A stretch of DNA of 64,000 nt, from the NCBI GenBank assembly GCA_030603365.1, contig JAUVXV010000001.1, positions 416,001-480,000 of the forward strand, written 5' to 3'. How positions within the stretch are numbered: position 1 is the first letter of the stretch; each line of letters begins with the position of its first letter. Under the pieces are notes generated by a model. It saw only the letters and a list, made by a program, of their open reading frames with translations, did no database searches and was not told the DNA's origin. Below, piece by piece: positions 2,317 through 14,150 of this stretch. Made by a program: the position numbers and the translations under genes. This DNA is from Candidatus Heimdallarchaeota archaeon (GTDB lineage Archaea > Asgardarchaeota > Heimdallarchaeia > Heimdallarchaeales > Heimdallarchaeaceae).

Positions 2317-3999
2317 ATGAACTTAAGGAAAATCTTGATTGCAAGTGGTATAATATTATTAGTGCTTAATTTAACACCTTCTTTTTCTGAAGCGAAAGAA
2401 AGCCCTCAAACAGATTCAAGTCTAATTGTTAACCAAGAAGTGAATTTCTATTTCAATGTTACAACCATGTACACTGAAATTTCAATTCGAAGTGATGGTT
2501 CTATAGATATTTATTATTTAATTCAATTCTTTAATCATCCAAATTCCTCATATAGTGAGCCTATATGGGTTTTTGATATTGGTTTTCCAAATGTCTATTA
2601 TGATCTTGATTCTGTAAGAGCAAAAATAAATGGTACGGAAATTACAGATATTAACAAAAGTCCTTATGTTGATATAGGCGTAGAAGTGATTCTTGGTTCG
2701 TATGCCGTTCCTTTGGGATACACTGGTGTTCTAGAAGTGTGGTGTCATAATCCAATAATGGTTTATGAAGATGAAAATGAAGGCTTTGGATCTACTGTCT
2801 TTCTACAAACATGGTTTGATTTCCAATATGTTTACCATCAAACCTTTAGAACTGTTCGATTTTATTTCCCCGATGGTTTGGAAGACATAACTGTGGTGGA
2901 ACCGCGTGTTTATGATAGAGGTGATTTTACGGTATTTGAACACCCTACAGATAACGCTCTATCTTATGTTCAATTTTATTATATAGGTTATCCTGATGAT
3001 GGCTATTGGGTTGGTGTAGCTTTTCCTAAAGATTATGCAAGAATTTTCAGTTCATTCTGGCGATTGAAGGTTTTTGGAAACATTATACAGAATCCTTTTT
3101 TTACAGTCGTTATTGCTTTAATAATCCTCGGAATCATTGCTCTTAGTATCAATAAAAGAAGAAATAAGAGAAAATATCTTCCCCCATCAATCAGTTCTTT
3201 GGGCGGGGGGGTAAGAGAAGGTCTAGAGCCTTCAGAAGTAGCGATTTTACTTGAAAGACCATTAACGCAAGTAGCTTCTTTAATGTTATTTGAAATGATG
3301 GAAAAAGGGTATTTAGCTATAAAACAGACATCACCAGCTCTAAGAATGGATGTTACAATAAGTACAGAGGCTGCAAGAGAATTACCCAAATATCAAAGAA
3401 CAATAATCGGAGGGATAAAAAATAGAAATAAAGAAGATATCAAATGGGAAAAGGGTGCTTCATCTGGAGCAATTCCGCCTGAACCTGTTCATCAAGATGC
3501 AATTAAGAGTGCTTTAGTTACTCAAATTAAATCAGTTACTAAAAAGATGAAAGGATTTTCAGCTAGAAAGTCTAGAGATTATTATGAAGCAGTTATAGAT
3601 AGAGCTTGGCAGGAAATGGATAAATCCAAACCAGAATTGAAGAATGCTTTCCTATGGATAATGGTAGATGAGAAGTATGAGCAACAACTTGAGAAATCTG
3701 GTGGAAACTATTACTACCCAAGATGGTATGTGTTTAGTTACTACCTCTATGTTGGAGGACCTCGTCCAACAACTAGAGGTCATTATACAAGAATCCCCTC
3801 CCATAGAAGTATCTCACATGCAGCTCCTGTGAATACTTTTATGTCTGGATTAATTCATAAACCTCAATCTCTCCACAATTCTATAAGGAACATTACTCGA
3901 CCTCCATCAACTAGCTCAGGAAGAAGTGGTGGTGGCGGTGGCGGAGGGTGTGCATGTGCTTGTGCATGTGCTTGTGCTTGTGCAGGAGGCGGAAGATGA
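2317..3999 (+). CDS. DUF2207-like membrane protein with signal peptide, extracellular domain, TM helix and a C-terminal Gly-rich (Cys-Ala)6-GGGR tail; putative radical SAM substrate
   Basis: N-terminal signal peptide, 'ISIRSDGSIDI' DUF2207-like start, TM at ~aa 260-280, 'LEPSEVAILL', C-terminus SGGGGGGGCACACACACACAGGGR. Confidence 0.8.
   Translation: MNLRKILIASGIILLVLNLTPSFSEAKESPQTDSSLIVNQEVNFYFNVTTMYTEISIRSDGSIDIYYLIQFFNHPNSSYSEPIWVFDIGFPNVYYDLDSVRAKINGTEITDINKSPYVDIGVEVILGSYAVPLGYTGVLEVWCHNPIMVYEDENEGFGSTVFLQTWFDFQYVYHQTFRTVRFYFPDGLEDITVVEPRVYDRGDFTVFEHPTDNALSYVQFYYIGYPDDGYWVGVAFPKDYARIFSSFWRLKVFGNIIQNPFFTVVIALIILGIIALSINKRRNKRKYLPPSISSLGGGVREGLEPSEVAILLERPLTQVASLMLFEMMEKGYLAIKQTSPALRMDVTISTEAARELPKYQRTIIGGIKNRNKEDIKWEKGASSGAIPPEPVHQDAIKSALVTQIKSVTKKMKGFSARKSRDYYEAVIDRAWQEMDKSKPELKNAFLWIMVDEKYEQQLEKSGGNYYYPRWYVFSYYLYVGGPRPTTRGHYTRIPSHRSISHAAPVNTFMSGLIHKPQSLHNSIRNITRPPSTSSGRSGGGGGGGCACACACACACAGGGR
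3949..3984 (+). repeat. (TGTGCW)6 hexamer repeat encoding CACACACACACA
   Basis: TGT GCA TGT GCT TGT GCA TGT GCT TGT GCT TGT GCA; variation only at synonymous Ala positions. Confidence 0.95.
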
Positions 4000-5339
4000 T
4001 GAATTTATCAGAATTACTGAACAGATTTAGAATAACAAGAAAATCAGAGATGTTCCACCAAAGGAATCTAGATACCACTTCAAGAATGCATCTGCGGAAA
4101 GAAAGGAAAGGAAAGAGTCTTCTCTTAGTTAATGCAACCATGATTTTTCATTTAAACAAGACAGCAACAGACTTTGCTTCTCGAATCATTGATGGTAAAG
4201 ATGATGCTGAAATAATAAGAGAAATGAAAAGGAAATATCGCGTTTCAGAGGAGCAATTGAAAACAGATTTGGATGATCTAAGGAACTCCATTAACCGTCT
4301 ATTAGATGAACCTGATATTGACCCTGTTCAACACCTGTCTCAAGATGTAAGCCCTTTGCTAGAAGCATCCTTTTCGGCACCTTTGAGAATGGATCTTGCA
4401 ATTACATATAGATGTAACAACAAATGTTCAAAGTGCTATGTTGAGAATTACAGAGATGTTAGAGAATTATCAACTATTGAATGGAAAAAAGTTCTAGACA
4501 ATCTTTGGAAAATAGGCATTCCACACGTTACTTTTACTGGTGGAGAACCTACAATAAGACAAGACCTTCCAGATCTTGTTGAATATGCTGAAGATCTTGG
4601 AATAATAACTGGTTTAATTACAAATGGAAGGAAACTCAAAAATGCTAAATTAGTAAACAAACTAGTAAATGCAGGAATTGACCATTTTCAGGTAACGATT
4701 GAAAGTCATGATGCTTCAATACATGATTCAATGTGTGGTGAAAGAGGATCATGGCAAGAAACAGTTGAAGGAATAAAGAATATTGTTCCAACTCCTGTTT
4801 ATATTATGACTAACACAACCTTGACCCCTTATAATATCAAAGATATTGAAAAAACTGTCGAATTTCTTCATTCTATAGGGATTGAGAAGTTTGCAGCAAA
4901 TAGCATTATCAAATCTGGTGGAGGAAAACAAGAGGATTTAGCAATCTCTGTCGAAGAACTAGATGAAGCTCTAACGAAAATTATGAATAAAGCTTATGAA
5001 CTAGGTATGAGTTTTATTTGGTACAGTCCAACAAGATATTGCGATTTTAATCCTATAGACAAAGGATTGGGGATGAAGCAATGTTCAGCTGCTCATATAG
5101 CCATGGCTATCGAACCGGATGGGGAAGTAATACCATGTCAGAGCTATTTTGAAACTCTAGGAAACATTCTTACAACTAGATGGGGTAAAATCTGGAACCA
5201 TAAAACCTCAAGAAAATTAAGAAATATGAAATATCTTCAAGAGGAATGCTTAGATTGTCCTGAAAGAGAAGTGTGCGGTGGAGGGTGCCCATTAAATTAT
5301 GCTGCACCCATGAATATTTGTAAAACCCCATTCTCCTAA
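3996..5339 (+). CDS. PqqD/RRE-domain radical SAM protein with SPASM domain (peptide/protein maturase family)
   Basis: N-terminal RRE-like 'LNKTA...IIDGK...KY.VSEEQLKTDLDDL'; CNNKCSKC; 'FTGGEP'; SPASM 'CSAA..IEPDGEVIPCQ...CLDC...CGGGCP'; ATG 3996 overlaps the upstream TGA (ATGA). Confidence 0.93.
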   Translation: MMNLSELLNRFRITRKSEMFHQRNLDTTSRMHLRKERKGKSLLLVNATMIFHLNKTATDFASRIIDGKDDAEIIREMKRKYRVSEEQLKTDLDDLRNSINRLLDEPDIDPVQHLSQDVSPLLEASFSAPLRMDLAITYRCNNKCSKCYVENYRDVRELSTIEWKKVLDNLWKIGIPHVTFTGGEPTIRQDLPDLVEYAEDLGIITGLITNGRKLKNAKLVNKLVNAGIDHFQVTIESHDASIHDSMCGERGSWQETVEGIKNIVPTPVYIMTNTTLTPYNIKDIEKTVEFLHSIGIEKFAANSIIKSGGGKQEDLAISVEELDEALTKIMNKAYELGMSFIWYSPTRYCDFNPIDKGLGMKQCSAAHIAMAIEPDGEVIPCQSYFETLGNILTTRWGKIWNHKTSRKLRNMKYLQEECLDCPEREVCGGGCPLNYAAPMNICKTPFS

Positions 5340-5349
5340 TTTTTTTCTG

Positions 5350-6114
5350 GTGCTCGAAATGTCAAACAGAACCAAAGATGTTAACTGGGGACCAGAAATT
5401 CATGAACAATTCAAGAGACAAGCTAAATGGACTGAAGATTTTAGATCTCAAATTTATCGCCAAATAAATCTCAGGAACGCAAAGAGAGTTTTAGAAGTGG
5501 GATGTGGAACAGGCGTAATAACCAATGAACTAAAACAGAAAACTTCTGCTAAAATTACTGCAATTGATTCTGATGAAAACATGGTAGAAATAGCAGAAAA
5601 AAATGTTGTAGATGTCAAATTCTTAGCTGAAAACGTTGAAAAATTAACTATGAAAGACAATTTTTTTGATGTAATTTTGTGTCAGTATCTTTTTCTTTGG
5701 TTATCAAATCCCAAGATAGCAATAAGCGAAATGGTTAGAGTGTGTAAAAAGGGAGGACACGTTGTAGCTTTAGCAGAACCAGATTACGGAGCATGGATCG
5801 AATATCCTGAATTGAATTTAGGGGAAAAGCACATTGAATATCTCAAAAGTGAGGGCGCTGATCCATTCATGGGAAGAAAGATACTCAGTTTATTTGAAGG
5901 AGCAGGTTTACAGACTAACCTTATTACTATAGCTCAGAGCTGGAATCAAGAGAATCTTAAAAACAATATTGAAGAAGAATGGCAAAGAGTATTAGAAGCT
6001 AACTTGATTACCGAAGAAGAATATTCACGTATTATTAAAAAAGAAATGGATCTGATTAGAGAGAATCAAAGAATGATTTTTATGCCAGTTTTTTGCGCAA
6101 TTGGAAGAAAGTAG
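5350..6114 (+). CDS. Class I SAM-dependent methyltransferase (UbiE/type 11-like)
   Basis: 'VLEVGCGTG', 'AIDSD', 'FDVI', 'EMVRVCKKGG'; starts 10 nt after the rSAM stop (GTG 5350, or ATG 5359). Confidence 0.9.
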   Translation: MLEMSNRTKDVNWGPEIHEQFKRQAKWTEDFRSQIYRQINLRNAKRVLEVGCGTGVITNELKQKTSAKITAIDSDENMVEIAEKNVVDVKFLAENVEKLTMKDNFFDVILCQYLFLWLSNPKIAISEMVRVCKKGGHVVALAEPDYGAWIEYPELNLGEKHIEYLKSEGADPFMGRKILSLFEGAGLQTNLITIAQSWNQENLKNNIEEEWQRVLEANLITEEEYSRIIKKEMDLIRENQRMIFMPVFCAIGRK

Positions 6115-6136: not shown

Positions 6137-6291
6137 TGGTCGGGCTTCCGTGATTTGAACACGGGACCGCTCGGTCTCTACCGGCTGACGCCTTGATCAT
6201 TGCTCACAAGGGTGTCATATGACTACAGCCGAGAGCTCTAAGCCATTTCTCTGAGTTCACACACAATGAGACTCATCTGAGCTAAAGCCCG
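6137..6291 (-). tRNA. tRNA-Tyr(GTA) with a 47-nt canonical intron (6176-6222) and a ~30-nt D-loop insert (about 6246-6275); CCA encoded
   Basis: Acceptor CGGGCTT/AAGCCCG-A-CCA (C1:G72, archaeal Tyr identity), D-stem GCTC/GAGC, anticodon stem CTCGG/CCGAG, T-arm CCGTG-TTCAAAT-CACGG. Confidence 0.9.
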
Positions 6292-6456
6292 ATGTTTATC
6301 CACACATTTTTTCCTTCTACTCTATTCTTAAATTTTTCTTTTCTAATCTATAATTTATTTACTGATATCCTTCTACTTAATGCCTTGATTTCTAATATGA
6401 AATACCCCATTTAAGTAAACTTAAAAGTAAGTTCTTCTTACTTTTACTCGATAATT

Positions 6457-7040: not shown

Positions 7041-7424
7041 ATGGAATTGTACGGTACAGCTGATTGGAAAACTGAAAAACATGTGCCAGTAATTGAAGTT
7101 GCTGATGTAATTAAGACAGGCGAAAAAACTCCTGTGATTGTAAGTGTAGGAAAAGAAATTACTCATCCTAACAAAACAGAGCACCATATATCTTGGATTA
7201 AGCTTATGTTTTGGCCAGAAGAAGAGAAATATCCTTATCAAATTGGTTTAGTCAATTTTGATGCTCATGGTGCCTCACTCAAGGGACCTGATTCAAGTGG
7301 AGTTTATTCTGAACCCTATGCAGTTTTTCACATAAAAACTGACAAACCAGGAAAACTAATTGCAACCTCTTACTGTAATATACACGGCTTTTGGAAATAC
7401 GAAAAAGAAGTAAAGGTAGAGTAA
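7041..7424 (+). CDS. sor: Superoxide reductase (neelaredoxin/class II SORL domain)
   Basis: EKHVP, HPNKTEHHISWI and YCNIHG iron-ligand motifs. Confidence 0.93.
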   Translation: MELYGTADWKTEKHVPVIEVADVIKTGEKTPVIVSVGKEITHPNKTEHHISWIKLMFWPEEEKYPYQIGLVNFDAHGASLKGPDSSGVYSEPYAVFHIKTDKPGKLIATSYCNIHGFWKYEKEVKVE

Positions 7425-9501: not shown

Positions 9502-9562
9502 GACCTAATCTTTGCATTATGAAGTAAATGTTTATATTTTTAGAGCATGTATATTCATTACC

Positions 9563-11476
9563 TTGAATCTACATTCTAACAAGTATTATGGGTACAGAGG
9601 ACAAATTCTCATAGTTGATTTAGAGGGATCTACTGTCCAAAAAAAACCACTTGATTCGAATTATATTGAAGAATTTTTGGGAGGAAGAGGTTGGGCAATT
9701 AAATACCTCTATGATAATCTTAAACCGAATGTTGATCCACTTGGTCCTGATAATATTCTCATTGTCAGCTTGGGTCCATTAACTGGTACTCTAGCTCCTT
9801 CTTCCGCTCGTTATACAATTGCAGCAAAATCTCCTCTTACTGGAGGGATTGGTTATGCAAATTCTGGAGGTCATTTTGCACCTGAACTAGCATATGCTGG
9901 ATATGATGCCATCTTTATTCATGGTCGTGCAAAATCACCTGTATATCTCTACATCAAAGATGATGAAGTAGAGATTAAAGACGCTGAACATCTGTGGGGA
10001 AAAGATACTTGGGAAACTGATGAAATATTAAGAACAGAACATTCTGAAGATTTCCAAAGTCTTTGTATTGGACAAGGAGGTGAGAATCTTGTCAAATATG
10101 CAGCAATAATAAATAATCTTTCACGTGCTGCTGCAAGGACAGGAGTGGGAGCTGTAATGGGTTCAAAGAATCTCAAAGCTATCACTGTTAAAGGATCGGG
10201 AGCAGTTAGAGTCGCACAACCTAAAACATTCAATGCTTTGATAGATGAAACATTACAAAAAATCTATGATGATCCTGCATACCCAAGTCTTTCTTATTAT
10301 GGAACAGCTTTTCTTGTGGATTTAGCTTATATCAGTGGAGGATTAGCTACAAGAAATAATCAAACTGGTATTTTTGAGAAATATGAATCTATTTCTGCCG
10401 AAACATTTGATGAAGAATATAGAGTAAAATCTGAAAGTTGTTTTGCATGTCCAATTCATTGTGGTAAATACTCAAAGGTTGAATTTGGTAAATACGCAGG
10501 TACCAAAGGTGGAAGTCCTGAATTTGAGACAATCGTGTGTTTGGGATCGAAATGTGGTATTGGGGATTTATCTGTAATTATTAAAGCAAATGAACTTGCT
10601 AATAGATATGGTCTTGATACAATTTCTCTAGGTGATAGTATAGCTTTTGTTATGGAAGCATTCCAAAAAGGGATACTGAGTAAAGAGGATACTGATGGTA
10701 TGGAGGTCGTATGGGGGAATGATGATGCTTTGATATCCTTAATAACAAAAGTAGCTTTTAGAGAAGGGTTTGGGGATCTTCTAGCTGAGGGAACTAAAAG
10801 ACTATCTGAGAAAATAGGAAAAGGTTCTGAAGAATTTGCTCATCATATAAAGGGAATGGAACCTCCAGCTTATGATGTTAGAACAGCAAAAGCTTTTGGT
10901 TTAGGGTGGGCTACTGCAACAAGAGGTGCCGATCATTTAGCCGCTCTACCAAATTTTGAGCTCTTAGGATATGAACCTGAGAAAGGTCTTGAATGGTTTG
11001 GTTCAAAGGATGCAGTTGACCCTCTCTCCTGTAAAGGAAAACCCAAAATGGTTTATTGGCATGAGAATTTCGGTGCTGTTGTCGACTCAGCTGAGATGTG
11101 TAAATATACTTGTTTTTCAGCTTATGCTATTAAGCCAGAGGATATGTCAAAGTTTCTAATTTATGCGACAGGTTTAGATTTCTCTCCTGAAAAATTGATG
11201 TTAATTGGAGAGAGGATATACAATCTTGAACGACTATTTAATCTGAGGGAAGGAAAAGGGATGGAAGAAGATCGATTACCTTCTAGATTTACTGATGAAC
11301 CATTACCTGAAGGTCCATCTAAGGGGAATTATGTCGAGTTAGATAAAATGCTTCCTGAGTATTACAAACTAAGGCAATGGAGTACAGATACAGGTTTACC
11401 AAGCGTTGAATTATTACAATCGCTGAATCTGTTTGATGAGGCCAAAAAATATAACTTAATAGATAAGGAGGAATAA
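9563..11476 (+). CDS. aor: Tungsten-containing aldehyde:ferredoxin oxidoreductase family protein
   Basis: 'GGRG', 'KSPLTG', 'GAVMGSKNLKA', 'CFACPIHC', 'GLDTISLG', 'RGADH', 'EDRLPSRF'; start uncertain (TTG 9563, or 9512). Confidence 0.95.
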   Translation: MNLHSNKYYGYRGQILIVDLEGSTVQKKPLDSNYIEEFLGGRGWAIKYLYDNLKPNVDPLGPDNILIVSLGPLTGTLAPSSARYTIAAKSPLTGGIGYANSGGHFAPELAYAGYDAIFIHGRAKSPVYLYIKDDEVEIKDAEHLWGKDTWETDEILRTEHSEDFQSLCIGQGGENLVKYAAIINNLSRAAARTGVGAVMGSKNLKAITVKGSGAVRVAQPKTFNALIDETLQKIYDDPAYPSLSYYGTAFLVDLAYISGGLATRNNQTGIFEKYESISAETFDEEYRVKSESCFACPIHCGKYSKVEFGKYAGTKGGSPEFETIVCLGSKCGIGDLSVIIKANELANRYGLDTISLGDSIAFVMEAFQKGILSKEDTDGMEVVWGNDDALISLITKVAFREGFGDLLAEGTKRLSEKIGKGSEEFAHHIKGMEPPAYDVRTAKAFGLGWATATRGADHLAALPNFELLGYEPEKGLEWFGSKDAVDPLSCKGKPKMVYWHENFGAVVDSAEMCKYTCFSAYAIKPEDMSKFLIYATGLDFSPEKLMLIGERIYNLERLFNLREGKGMEEDRLPSRFTDEPLPEGPSKGNYVELDKMLPEYYKLRQWSTDTGLPSVELLQSLNLFDEAKKYNLIDKEE

Positions 11477-11479
11477 AAA

Positions 11480-11980
11480 ATGGGGAAATTACAGATGAAA
11501 CGTATTTTTGTCATGGAAGATAGATGTAATGGGTGTAGAATATGCGAACTAAGATGTTCTTTTTATCATGATCAAATGTACTCTCCAACTCTTTCTAGAA
11601 TATATGTTGTCAAAAATGAAATAGAAGGATTCACAAAGCCAAAAACCTGTGTTATTTGCGGAAAATGTATCGAATCTTGCCCAGAAAATGCTATCTCAAA
11701 ATCCGAACTGACTGGAGCTATATCTATAAACGAAGATCAATGCACAGGATGCATGGAATGTGTGAAAGCCTGTCCATTTGAAGTAATGAGATTTAACCAT
11801 GCTACAAATAAAGCATTTACTTGTGATTTGTGTGATGGGGATCCTCAATGTGTTAAATACTGTCCTGAAGAAGCTTTGTTCTATACAACTTCAAAAGAGT
11901 TTTCTGATTTTAAGAAAAAAGAGAACGAAAAGAAAGCTTCTGATAAGATAAAAAAACCTCATGTGATTCCACAAGAATAA
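11480..11980 (+). CDS. 4Fe-4S dicluster ferredoxin-like subunit (AOR-associated)
   Basis: Four Cys clusters (CNGCRICELRC; CVIC..C...CP; CTGCMECVKACP; CDLC...C...CP). Confidence 0.92.
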   Translation: MGKLQMKRIFVMEDRCNGCRICELRCSFYHDQMYSPTLSRIYVVKNEIEGFTKPKTCVICGKCIESCPENAISKSELTGAISINEDQCTGCMECVKACPFEVMRFNHATNKAFTCDLCDGDPQCVKYCPEEALFYTTSKEFSDFKKKENEKKASDKIKKPHVIPQE

Positions 11981-12006
11981 GCTAGTTTCACTTTGTGGTA
12001 AATAGA

Positions 12007-13827
12007 TTATTTTCCATTTTTCAAATCTTCTTCAACTTCCAATAAAATCTCCATATTCTTCTGAAAAATCTCATTGTTAGAACTGATGTCTTTAGCAAAC
12101 CTTACTCTAATAAAAACATAGAAATTCATCGCTACATTTTTGATAATTGATGCTATGGTTTTATACTTAATGACAGAAAAAACTAACACTCCGAAAAGAA
12201 GGAGCCATAATGGTATAAGGTAAACTCCATAAAATAGAGGCCAGTTATTGAACTTTCTTGGATTAGTGAGATTGTAATATTCATCAAGATTCGAAAAACC
12301 ATCGCCATCCGGATCTTGATATGTACTTATTTCGAGTGGATCTAATCTGTATTCCACTTCCCAGTTATCAGGCAAGAGATCATCATCTGTATCATTTTTA
12401 TTCGGGTTAGTATGATAATAATTTGTTTCAATCAAATCGTCCAGAAAATCTCCATCACTATCTGGTCTACCATGATGGAGATAACTGCCACCATAAGTCC
12501 ACCATGAACTTGTAGAATTTGTAGATTCTGATAACTCAAAACAGTAGAGGTCATTCTGAGCAGGTCTAGCAATTATAATTTCCAACTTAGAATCTAGATC
12601 AATATCAGCTACTAGAGGAGGTTCTTTACTCATGCTATCTAGTTCTCTATAGAGCATAAGTTGTCCTAAAAAGTTTAAACCAACAAAATTTTCATTTCCT
12701 TCGGTGAATAATGTTTCCAGTTTTCCATCATTATCTATATCTACTAAAGCAGGACTACCAACAGGTTTTGTTGCGTTAAAATTCCAAACATCTTGTCCTG
12801 TTGAATCAATACAAAAAACTTGACCAAATCTTGTTTCCCAATCATAACTACTTGAAATTATTTCCAGATTTCCATTGTCATTTATATCCGCTATACATGG
12901 ATCATGATACATGAAATTACTTCTGTTATCTGCATGTTTCTGCTGATACGCCCACTCAATTCCTCCTTCGTGATCAAAACAGAATAGTTTGAAGGTACTT
13001 CCAATACATATTTCCAAAGTGCCGTCATTATCAAGATCAGCTATGCTAAACAAAGCATCTCCTCGTAATGTTGGAGAAGCGATCCATTTTTGTTCTCCTT
13101 GTTGGGAAATACAATGTAGTTTGTAATCGTTTCCAATAAGAAGGATTTCAATTTCTCCATCATTATCAAGATCTGCAATAGTTGGTGCTCCCCCTAAAAT
13201 ATCTGTCCAAAATCCAGCGTAATCTAATTCAAGATTGAATTCTTTCACAAATTCTCCATTGCGATTTAAAAGAAAAGGTTGACTAATTGTTTTTGCAGTT
13301 GATATGAGAATATCCAAATGATCATCGCCATCTATGTCAAAAATACAGGGGGTAAAATCCTCTAATTCATAATTAGTAGTGTATTCCCATCTCTTTAATC
13401 CCTGAGAATTCAAACAAATTATCGAAGATTTTCCTGTTAGTATAATGTCGGGTTTTCCATCCTCATTCAAGTCAGCTATAACAATTTTACCAGTTAAAGT
13501 ACTTTTCAGATAAGCTCCCCATCTCAAGCTCCCATCGGAATTTATACAATATAAATCGTGGGGGGTCGCAATTAAAATTTCTTTGAACCCATCCCTCTCC
13601 AAATCTGCAAGTAAAGGTGATCCGATAATATCTTTATTTAAAGCAGTTATCCACGAAGTTTCTAAATACTCTGTTCCAACTAAGCCATCATCTAAACCTT
13701 TTCCAGAAATAGGCTGATAGAGTACTAAAGATGAAAGGAATAATACCTGAATTACCATAGTTATGAGTTTTAAGTGCTTAGCCTTTGCCTTGTTCACCCT
13801 AACAACCATATTAACATGTGTGTTCAA
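12007..13827 (-). CDS. Membrane-anchored FG-GAP/VCBS beta-propeller protein with thrombospondin type-3-like Ca-binding repeats
   Basis: About 8 'ADLDNDGxxEI' repeats, 'DSDGD.L.D..E', 'DTDDDLLPDNWE', 'DPDGDGFSNLDE'; signal-like N-terminus and C-terminal TM; true start probably downstream. Confidence 0.88.
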   Translation of the reverse strand: MNTHVNMVVRVNKAKAKHLKLITMVIQVLFLSSLVLYQPISGKGLDDGLVGTEYLETSWITALNKDIIGSPLLADLERDGFKEILIATPHDLYCINSDGSLRWGAYLKSTLTGKIVIADLNEDGKPDIILTGKSSIICLNSQGLKRWEYTTNYELEDFTPCIFDIDGDDHLDILISTAKTISQPFLLNRNGEFVKEFNLELDYAGFWTDILGGAPTIADLDNDGEIEILLIGNDYKLHCISQQGEQKWIASPTLRGDALFSIADLDNDGTLEICIGSTFKLFCFDHEGGIEWAYQQKHADNRSNFMYHDPCIADINDNGNLEIISSSYDWETRFGQVFCIDSTGQDVWNFNATKPVGSPALVDIDNDGKLETLFTEGNENFVGLNFLGQLMLYRELDSMSKEPPLVADIDLDSKLEIIIARPAQNDLYCFELSESTNSTSSWWTYGGSYLHHGRPDSDGDFLDDLIETNYYHTNPNKNDTDDDLLPDNWEVEYRLDPLEISTYQDPDGDGFSNLDEYYNLTNPRKFNNWPLFYGVYLIPLWLLLFGVLVFSVIKYKTIASIIKNVAMNFYVFIRVRFAKDISSNNEIFQKNMEILLEVEEDLKNGK

Positions 13828-13871
13828 GCAGTTAAAAACATAATTAAAAGAACATTATTTGACGTTAGAGT

Positions 13872-14150
13872 TTATCCACCAGCTATCGCAGGCATTAATA
13901 CTACCATATCATCCTCATGTAATTCTGTATTGAAGCCATCTAGAAGATTGATATTACGTGCATTTACCAAAATTCTGTAAATCTTACGTATCTCTCCTTT
14001 TTCGTTGAGTAACTCTTGTTCAAGTTCGGGACCAAATTCCTTGATTAGTTTCTCTATTAGGTCTTTAATCATAGTAGCTTCATAATCAAATTGTTTCTTA
14101 CCTATTATTTGTTTAAGCCTAGCAAAAGTAACAACAACTATTTTTACCAT
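13872..14150 (-). CDS. MoaD/ThiS/SAMP ubiquitin-like sulfur carrier
   Basis: 'ILVNARNI...TEL...D.VVLMPAIAGG' with C-terminal GG. Confidence 0.92.
   Translation of the reverse strand: MVKIVVVTFARLKQIIGKKQFDYEATMIKDLIEKLIKEFGPELEQELLNEKGEIRKIYRILVNARNINLLDGFNTELHEDDMVVLMPAIAGG

Follow-up and report, generated by a model that had tools for sequence, protein, structure and literature searches.

The stretch of DNA analysed here (the window) comprises 64,000 nucleotides of a Candidatus Heimdallarchaeota archaeon genome (GCA_030603365.1, contig JAUVXV010000001.1, positions 416,001 to 480,000). At 2317 to 6114 it carries three consecutive genes encoding P0001, a single-pass membrane protein related to DUF2207 that ends in a Cys-Ala repeat; P0002, a radical S-adenosylmethionine (SAM) enzyme with a SPASM domain and a recognition element (RRE) of the type associated with ribosomally made peptides that are modified after translation (RiPPs); and P0003, a methyltransferase. 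This system is real, conserved, widespread and undescribed. The features of the locus are the following (window coordinates, strand):

2317-3999, +: P0001, DUF2207-like single-pass membrane protein of 560 amino acids (aa), the proposed substrate
2443-3030, +: ectodomain, residues 43-238 of P0001, a beta-sandwich with structural matches to ribophorin I/Ost1 and the M1 aminopeptidase N-domain
3094-3162, +: transmembrane (TM) helix, about residues 260-282 of P0001, followed by a Lys/Arg cluster that puts the C-terminus inside
3175-3204, +: juxtamembrane YxxPxIxxxG motif, residues 287-296 of P0001, a candidate RRE-binding site
3220-3846, +: folded cytoplasmic domain, about residues 302-510 of P0001, DUF2207_C-like in the structure model
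3949-3996, +: (Cys-Ala)6-GGGR tail preceded by a Ser/Gly linker, disordered by prediction, the proposed modified core
3996-5339, +: P0002, RRE-radical SAM-SPASM enzyme of 446-447 aa (Pfam PqqD, Radical_SAM and SPASM)
5350-6114, +: P0003, class I SAM methyltransferase starting with GTG, cassette-associated but optional
1508-2164, -: P0004, divergent TehB-like methyltransferase, a mere neighbour seen only beside close Heimdallarchaeia kin

This layout bears out the one given in the initial annotation, with a tailed 560-aa protein, a TGA/ATG overlap, an RRE-radical SAM-SPASM gene and a methyltransferase gene 10 nt further on. The P0001 stop codon TGA (3997-3999) is overlapped by two ATG codons of P0002, at 3996 (ATGA) and at 3999, and the GTG of P0003 at 5350 lies 10 nt past the P0002 stop at 5339; judging by homologues, the true start of P0003 may be the ATG at 5359. 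A GTG start of P0002 at 3948 (463 aa) was rejected, as it corresponds to the tail read in a shifted frame and homologues begin near 3999. A scan for sigma-70 promoters gave matches at chance level.

The C-terminus of P0001 consists of a Ser/Gly linker, (Cys-Ala)6 and GGGR, and its last 16 residues hold six of the seven Cys of the protein. About 2e-14 occurrences of a (Cys-Ala)6 run are expected by chance in the proteome; one is seen, unique in the genome. The tail is the most conserved part of the membrane protein, with a column conservation of 0.99 versus 0.50-0.60 in the rest. A tail of the same kind ends 183 of 189 database homologues (about 30% overall identity), in most cases with seven Cys interrupted once by Gly; the remaining six have no Cys tail, and several of them carry the label 'partial'. 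Kin of P0001 have five or six Cys and bacteria seven or eight, and this repeat number may be set by slippage. Synonymous variation of the Ala codons had been taken in the initial annotation as a sign of selection on the peptide. Within the window this argument is weak, since the Cys codons are all TGT (6/6) and the Ala codons alternate between GCA and GCT, a pattern that is still microsatellite-like. Across species it holds: the last 10 residues have 149 distinct coding sequences, with Cys codons split between TGC (76) and TGT (73). A microsatellite artefact is ruled out by this scrambling, and the tail must be under selection, because its protein sequence is near-invariant despite the scrambled codons.

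The tail and the enzyme go together across genomes. Metagenomes were scanned by the tail DNA pattern alone, yielding 120 loci, 79 of which could be judged, having 1.5 kb or more of downstream sequence. In 73 of these 79 there was the enzyme or a paralogue, and in 59 it was the next gene, so that the tailed proteins mostly have the RRE-radical SAM enzyme alongside, as anticipated from the window. Of the six misses, five belong to a subtype with the enzyme on the upstream side, where the locus is truncated. Starting from the enzyme, six of seven distant enzymes, chosen blind by score, have a membrane-protein homologue next to them, and in four cases its Cys tail is visible. Among 301 Asgard genomes, 103 have both protein and enzyme, 176 neither, seven the protein only and 15 the enzyme only (phi 0.85, a descriptive value, given the non-independence of kin); in one genus of 21 genomes, it is the same 11 that carry both. 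The linkage is kept through rearrangements (enzyme downstream, upstream or head-to-head) across domains of life, and the system spans at least 2,083 database proteins at 90% clustering, including several Asgard lineages. One scan of genome contigs recovered only three close loci. Tandem copies of the tailed membrane protein with one active enzyme occur at L012, L018, L021, L042, L073, L089, L102 and L174.

P0002 scores above the Pfam cut-offs for PqqD, Radical_SAM and SPASM. Its PqqD-like N-terminal RRE reaches 28.1 bits with PF05402 (cut-off 23.4; E 2.5e-6). The CxxxCxxC motif (C139/143/146), a GGE motif and the SPASM cysteines (348, 362, 380, 417, 420, 426 and 430) are invariant across 60 enzyme homologues. 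None of the curated sactipeptide/ranthipeptide models tested (SkfB, AlbA, StsB, PapB) was matched over its cut-off, and the same is true of the CrpC family TIGR04463 (37.7 bits, cut-off 525). It had been considered that the enzyme might group with cofactor-synthesis clades. The best NCBIfam scores are indeed to the cofactor enzymes NirJ2, PqqE and AhbD; however, they are far under cut-off (best 142/500 and 141/381 bits), P0002 is below the cut-off of every cofactor-synthesis equivalog tested (PqqE, NirJ, AhbC/AhbD, MftC) and it has a fused RRE. The system fits no curated family tested. Another radical SAM gene of the same genome (G000:C1:340762-341361) scores 119.5 bits with TIGR04463, also below cut-off, and has a stop within the match.

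The sactisynthases StsB (with its substrate StsA) and SkfB are likewise RRE-dependent SPASM/twitch enzymes (PMC10288494; PDB 6efn). At the catalytic-proximity positions of Precord et al. (PMC10288494), assigned here by motif and not by structure, P0002 has Y147, T180, I207, T233, Q381 and S382, as compared with Y,T,I,S,K,L in StsB and Y,T,F,S,Q,L in SkfB; three of the six are identical to each, plus a Thr for Ser, and the set may lean to sactisynthases. Those enzymes, however, act on short free precursors, of which there is none here, and P0002 is far under their cut-offs (86/625 and 96/300 bits). The absence of a short precursor was already remarked in the initial annotation and is confirmed, as the 2,695 intergenic open reading frames (ORFs) of the loci retrieved include no conserved small one. 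Small ORFs that do recur are shadows of real genes or tRNAs and were rejected as hidden precursors.

Which side of the membrane the tail is on matters for this proposal, and an extracellular tail would speak against it. P0001 has two hydrophobic stretches, residues 1-24 (signal) and 252-282 (TM), the latter followed by a Lys/Arg cluster, and in 58 homologues 270 Lys and Arg residues lie after the TM segment versus 62 before it. By the positive-inside rule, the tail is thus predicted to be cytoplasmic, on the same side as the enzyme. The cytoplasmic domain is modelled by AlphaFold2 as helical (pLDDT, the predicted local distance difference test, 86.9; predicted template modelling score, pTM, 0.83), with atlas template modelling (TM) scores of 0.50-0.53 to DUF2207_C clusters, and the tail region is disordered in the models. 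No Pfam or NCBIfam match of P0001 is above cut-off, including the gathering scores of DUF2207 (PF09972/PF20990). Weak DUF2207 Pfam matches were found in three of 47 homologues, and 16 true DUF2207 proteins match the hidden Markov model of the family, with E values between 5e-10 and 4e-5. Moreover, the P0001 family has the DUF2207 domain layout and cytoplasmic fold: like DUF2207 proteins such as SMU.243 of S. mutans (PMC10457818), it combines a signal, a beta-sandwich ectodomain, a TM segment, a helical cytoplasmic domain and a Gly-rich tail. In contrast, Cys is missing from the tails of ordinary members, which also lack a radical SAM gene beside them. Indeed, the tails of the true DUF2207 proteins of Asgard genomes (n=17) are Gly runs without Cys, and no RRE-radical SAM enzyme lies within about 5 kb of plain Asgard DUF2207 genes (0/10). 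Judging from these sequences, a DUF2207-type membrane protein has gained a Cys core within its usual Gly-rich tail; the simplest history would be insertion of the core in the Gly tail, the enzyme arriving with it.

The ectodomain model resembles the lumenal domain of ribophorin I/Ost1 (6c26_1; VIA Z 15.0, root mean square deviation, rmsd, 3.2, 183 residues aligned) and M1 aminopeptidase N-domains (Z 11-12). The cytoplasmic domain gives GOLPH3/Vps74 matches (Z 5.9 and 5.2, rmsd 4.7-4.9) that are below the noise level of the tool for helical folds. Two folds of the eukaryotic endomembrane system, the second only weakly, are thus seen within one prokaryotic family, and this likeness may reflect shared ancient folds only.

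A possible docking site for the enzyme lies directly after the TM segment. The motif YxxPx[ILV]xxxG occurs there in 179 of 182 homologues and in 153 of 187 locus-derived proteins, against a background of 0.8%, and its residues Y287, P290 and G296 are invariant. In plain DUF2207 controls another sequence precedes the same box, a matching string being found elsewhere in two of 17. It has been reported that lasso-peptide RREs bind a YxxPxL leader motif (PMC6784204). In the TfuB1 RRE/leader pair (PDB 6jx3; PMC6784204) this is YxxP with a hydrophobic residue two positions further on, as in P0001, and the P0002 RRE region has TfuB1 as its best PDB match, although not a significant one (E 0.26). Unlike in the TfuB1 system, the P0001 motif is internal and beside the membrane, and there is no lasso cyclase or peptidase. 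Co-folding, which the initial annotation had proposed for the RRE and the tail end, was run with P0002 and P0001 residues 282-560 and scored 0.42 (best control 0.02), with runs sharing at least 29% of contacts and a partner pLDDT of at least 72. In the calibration the mark was reached by 58 of 80 solved and two of 110 mismatched pairs; passes at 0.60 or lower comprise only seven of the 80 solved pairs, plus both passing mismatches. The co-folding lends weak support to an enzyme-protein contact.

A second tail type also follows the enzyme. The distant homologue of a large Asgard family (under the name Thorarchaeota among the database matches), like that of two other families, ends in (Cys-His-Ser-Ala)n (CHSA) followed by GG. 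This variant (loci L158-L162, L168, L169, L173, L178, L179, L200 and L204) has a pattern present in 58 genomes and, in this sample, in no family having the Cys-Ala form. CHSA-type proteins keep the juxtamembrane motif minus its last Gly, one of them matches DUF2207 at E 2.9e-4, and the RRE of a CHSA-type enzyme scores 31.2 bits with PF05402. The enzymes of CHSA tails form one clade over three families (Shimodaira-Hasegawa-like approximate likelihood ratio test 100, in a quick, midpoint-rooted tree with nine paralogue rows added and near-copies above 85% omitted) and have two substrate-facing positions changed, T233 to S and Q381 to S. Such tracking of tail type by enzyme clade would be expected of an enzyme-substrate pair. 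The CHSA-tailed protein matched none of the His-Xaa-Ser and Cxxx-repeat targets of NCBIfam, and the maturase model HxsC gave 107/268 bits. At L201:7934-9706 a hybrid tail has CHSA/CHSN repeats followed by Cys-Ala repeats, with 17 Cys in the protein. In loci of the Thorarchaeota type, the tail adjoins a metallophosphoesterase-like gene, and the enzyme has a gene for a double zinc-ribbon membrane protein in its vicinity.

The usual bacterial gene order is zinc-ribbon membrane protein, tailed protein, enzyme, cluster-less paralogue and methyltransferase, of which the window has a reduced three-gene form; neither the dead paralogue nor the zinc-ribbon gene with two TM segments was found in this genome (89% complete) with the queries used. 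Dead enzyme paralogues in bacterial cassettes (L005:10101-11261 and 32 more loci; L062:5291-6613) are of two kinds, one keeping the RRE and barrel with loss of CxxxCxxC and all SPASM Cys, the other keeping the second auxiliary cluster alone. As to the two methyltransferases that the initial annotation noted at the locus, the downstream one is associated with the cassette but optional, being found at 25 of 39 Cys-Ala loci with room and at none of seven CHSA loci, and this genome also has an unlinked paralogue. The divergent one was rejected as a member, since it is confined to close Heimdallarchaeia kin and occurs in none of the 120 metagenome loci.

There are precedents for maturation of whole proteins. 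The archaeal enzyme CrpC is also an RRE-radical SAM-SPASM protein adjoining a large Cys-rich protein of unknown function, the 29 kDa CrpA of Methanococcus voltae, which it crosslinks by demonstrated thioethers (TIGR04463; PMC13692751). CrpA differs in being a soluble repeat protein with CxxQ/D-type motifs and ranthionines, as opposed to a 16-residue core on a membrane protein. Similarly, QhpD of the quinohemoprotein amine dehydrogenase system crosslinks within QhpC, a protein that remains a protein (PMC7876137). QhpC, however, is the small subunit of a known enzyme complex, and the partner genes of that system are absent here. The acceptors of the QhpC crosslinks are Asp/Glu. By analogy with CrpC on CrpA and QhpD on QhpC, the present system resembles a thioether maturase that depends on an RRE and has a protein as its substrate. 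The suggestion that RiPP-type chemistry takes place on a full-length protein is supported as a reading, while the role of P0001 as substrate is something we infer; for its further descriptions, 'receptor-like' and 'released peptide', nothing in support was found. A literature search, with subscription papers and the supplements of two key papers outside its scope, returned nothing on the tail motifs, on DUF2207 with radical SAM or on Asgard SPASM RiPPs.

Because the tail is near-invariant even among very distantly related microbes and nearly always inherited with the enzyme, P0002 probably makes an as yet undescribed modification on the tail of the whole membrane protein. We consider it fairly likely that the tail cysteines are its targets, probably as thioethers. 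P0001, P0002 and the optional methyltransferase would then be a dedicated protein-maturation cassette, in which the co-translated enzyme would dock through its RRE on the cytoplasmic part of P0001, possibly at the YxxPxI motif, and the flexible Ser/Gly linker would let the tail reach the active site. There the 5'-deoxyadenosyl radical would oxidise the tail, most likely forming Cys-sulfur-to-carbon thioethers to Ala/Gly, at -2 Da each. Within this proposal thioether crosslinks take about half of the odds, the rest going to different oxidations of Cys, for example to thiooxazoles (known from the SbtM product; PMC12538549). In StsA, alternate-position Cys are linked to Gly alpha-carbons (PMC10288494); such S-to-alpha-carbon links, or S-to-Ala-beta links, are plausible here by analogy, because the tail offers only Ala and Gly as acceptors. 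The methyltransferase might add an optional second modification in Cys-Ala-type systems. The product would stay on the membrane protein, perhaps most likely serving as a rigid or metal-binding cytoplasmic tag.

Several observations weigh against this proposal. The tail has none of the Asp/Glu/Gln acceptors of ranthipeptides, each known sactisynthase has other residues at two of the six proximity positions (position 3 varying within the family), about 260 residues separate the candidate leader motif from the core behind it, the likeness of the RRE to TfuB1 is not significant, and the CHSA clade is one single evolutionary event. Gene linkage, moreover, indicates a shared pathway and not an enzyme-substrate relation. 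The enzyme and methyltransferase might have a different substrate (an unlinked peptide, or else a metabolite), being only co-regulated with the membrane protein. Indeed, the Asgard family f17 keeps both in 19/19 genomes, unlinked from the membrane protein, which is present in only 10/19 and was not found in five retested (78-89% complete); at L199 (4330-11314) the genes on either side of an enzyme relative encode 223 and 7,616 aa, and no tailed protein is nearby; and the genome studied here has its unlinked methyltransferase paralogue. However, the f17 membrane-protein genes are often at contig ends and may be lost from bins, the linkage outlasts many rearrangements across domains of life, and the Cys core and the enzyme appear together, both missing at plain DUF2207 loci. 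We regard this explanation as quite improbable.

Alternating Cys and Cys/His repeats are typical of metal ligands, Cys-x-Cys runs being classic metal sites, and the tail could be an unmodified metal or Fe-S ligand, with an enzyme that binds the protein to load, repair or sense a cluster, or that makes a small cofactor, leaving the peptide unaltered. The His of the variant tail, the CxxxCxxC spacing in a bacterial tail, the double zinc-ribbon protein of bacterial cassettes, the nearest NCBIfam scores of P0002 and the retention in bacteria of cluster-less paralogues, implying that binding without catalysis matters there, all fit this idea. Nevertheless, a fused RRE with a full SPASM domain is a hallmark of peptide-modifying enzymes, the near-invariant Ala and terminal GGGR exceed the needs of metal binding, and active-site residues shift with tail type; we judge it rather unlikely, and metal binding following modification is compatible with tail maturation by P0002 too. 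The flexible Ser/Gly/Arg linker ahead of the core and the leader-then-core layout would also suit a tail that is modified and then cleaved, the membrane protein being a giant leader and the product a small RiPP. This is very improbable, as no dedicated protease or exporter recurs among the neighbours of 128 loci, the ectodomain and cytoplasmic domain are conserved folds common to ordinary DUF2207 proteins, and discarding 545 residues per 16-residue product would be costly.

Modification of the tail of P0001 by P0002 thus remains our preferred explanation. A bolder version, which we hold to be possible but doubtful, would be a widespread cross-domain system in which a lasso-like internal leader is read beside the membrane and a poly-crosslinked or heterocyclic, sometimes methylated Cys tail is made on an intact DUF2207-type protein, the Cys-Ala and Cys-His-Ser-Ala codes being interchangeable, each with its own enzyme clade, dead paralogues regulating and the tail acting as a cytoplasmic metal/redox switch. 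Few radical SAM enzymes are known for RiPP-type chemistry on whole proteins, all on soluble substrates. If true, our proposal would add an integral membrane protein, present in thousands of anaerobes with several Asgard lineages among them; it would offer a way into what DUF2207 proteins do and explain how precursor-based genome mining overlooks such enzymes.

Other genes of the window appear, by sequence, to be ordinary neighbours: a desulfoferrodoxin-like gene (7041-7424) and, at 9512-14150, an aldehyde:ferredoxin oxidoreductase-like gene, an Fe-S subunit and a MoaD-like gene. A tRNA gene at 6137-6292 (minus strand) was missed by both default ARAGORN and Rfam. It has an intact acceptor stem, T arm and CCA, with two insertions; relaxed ARAGORN calls it Thr(tgt), and by eye it reads as tRNA-Tyr(GTA), its D-loop and anticodon loop each interrupted by an intron.

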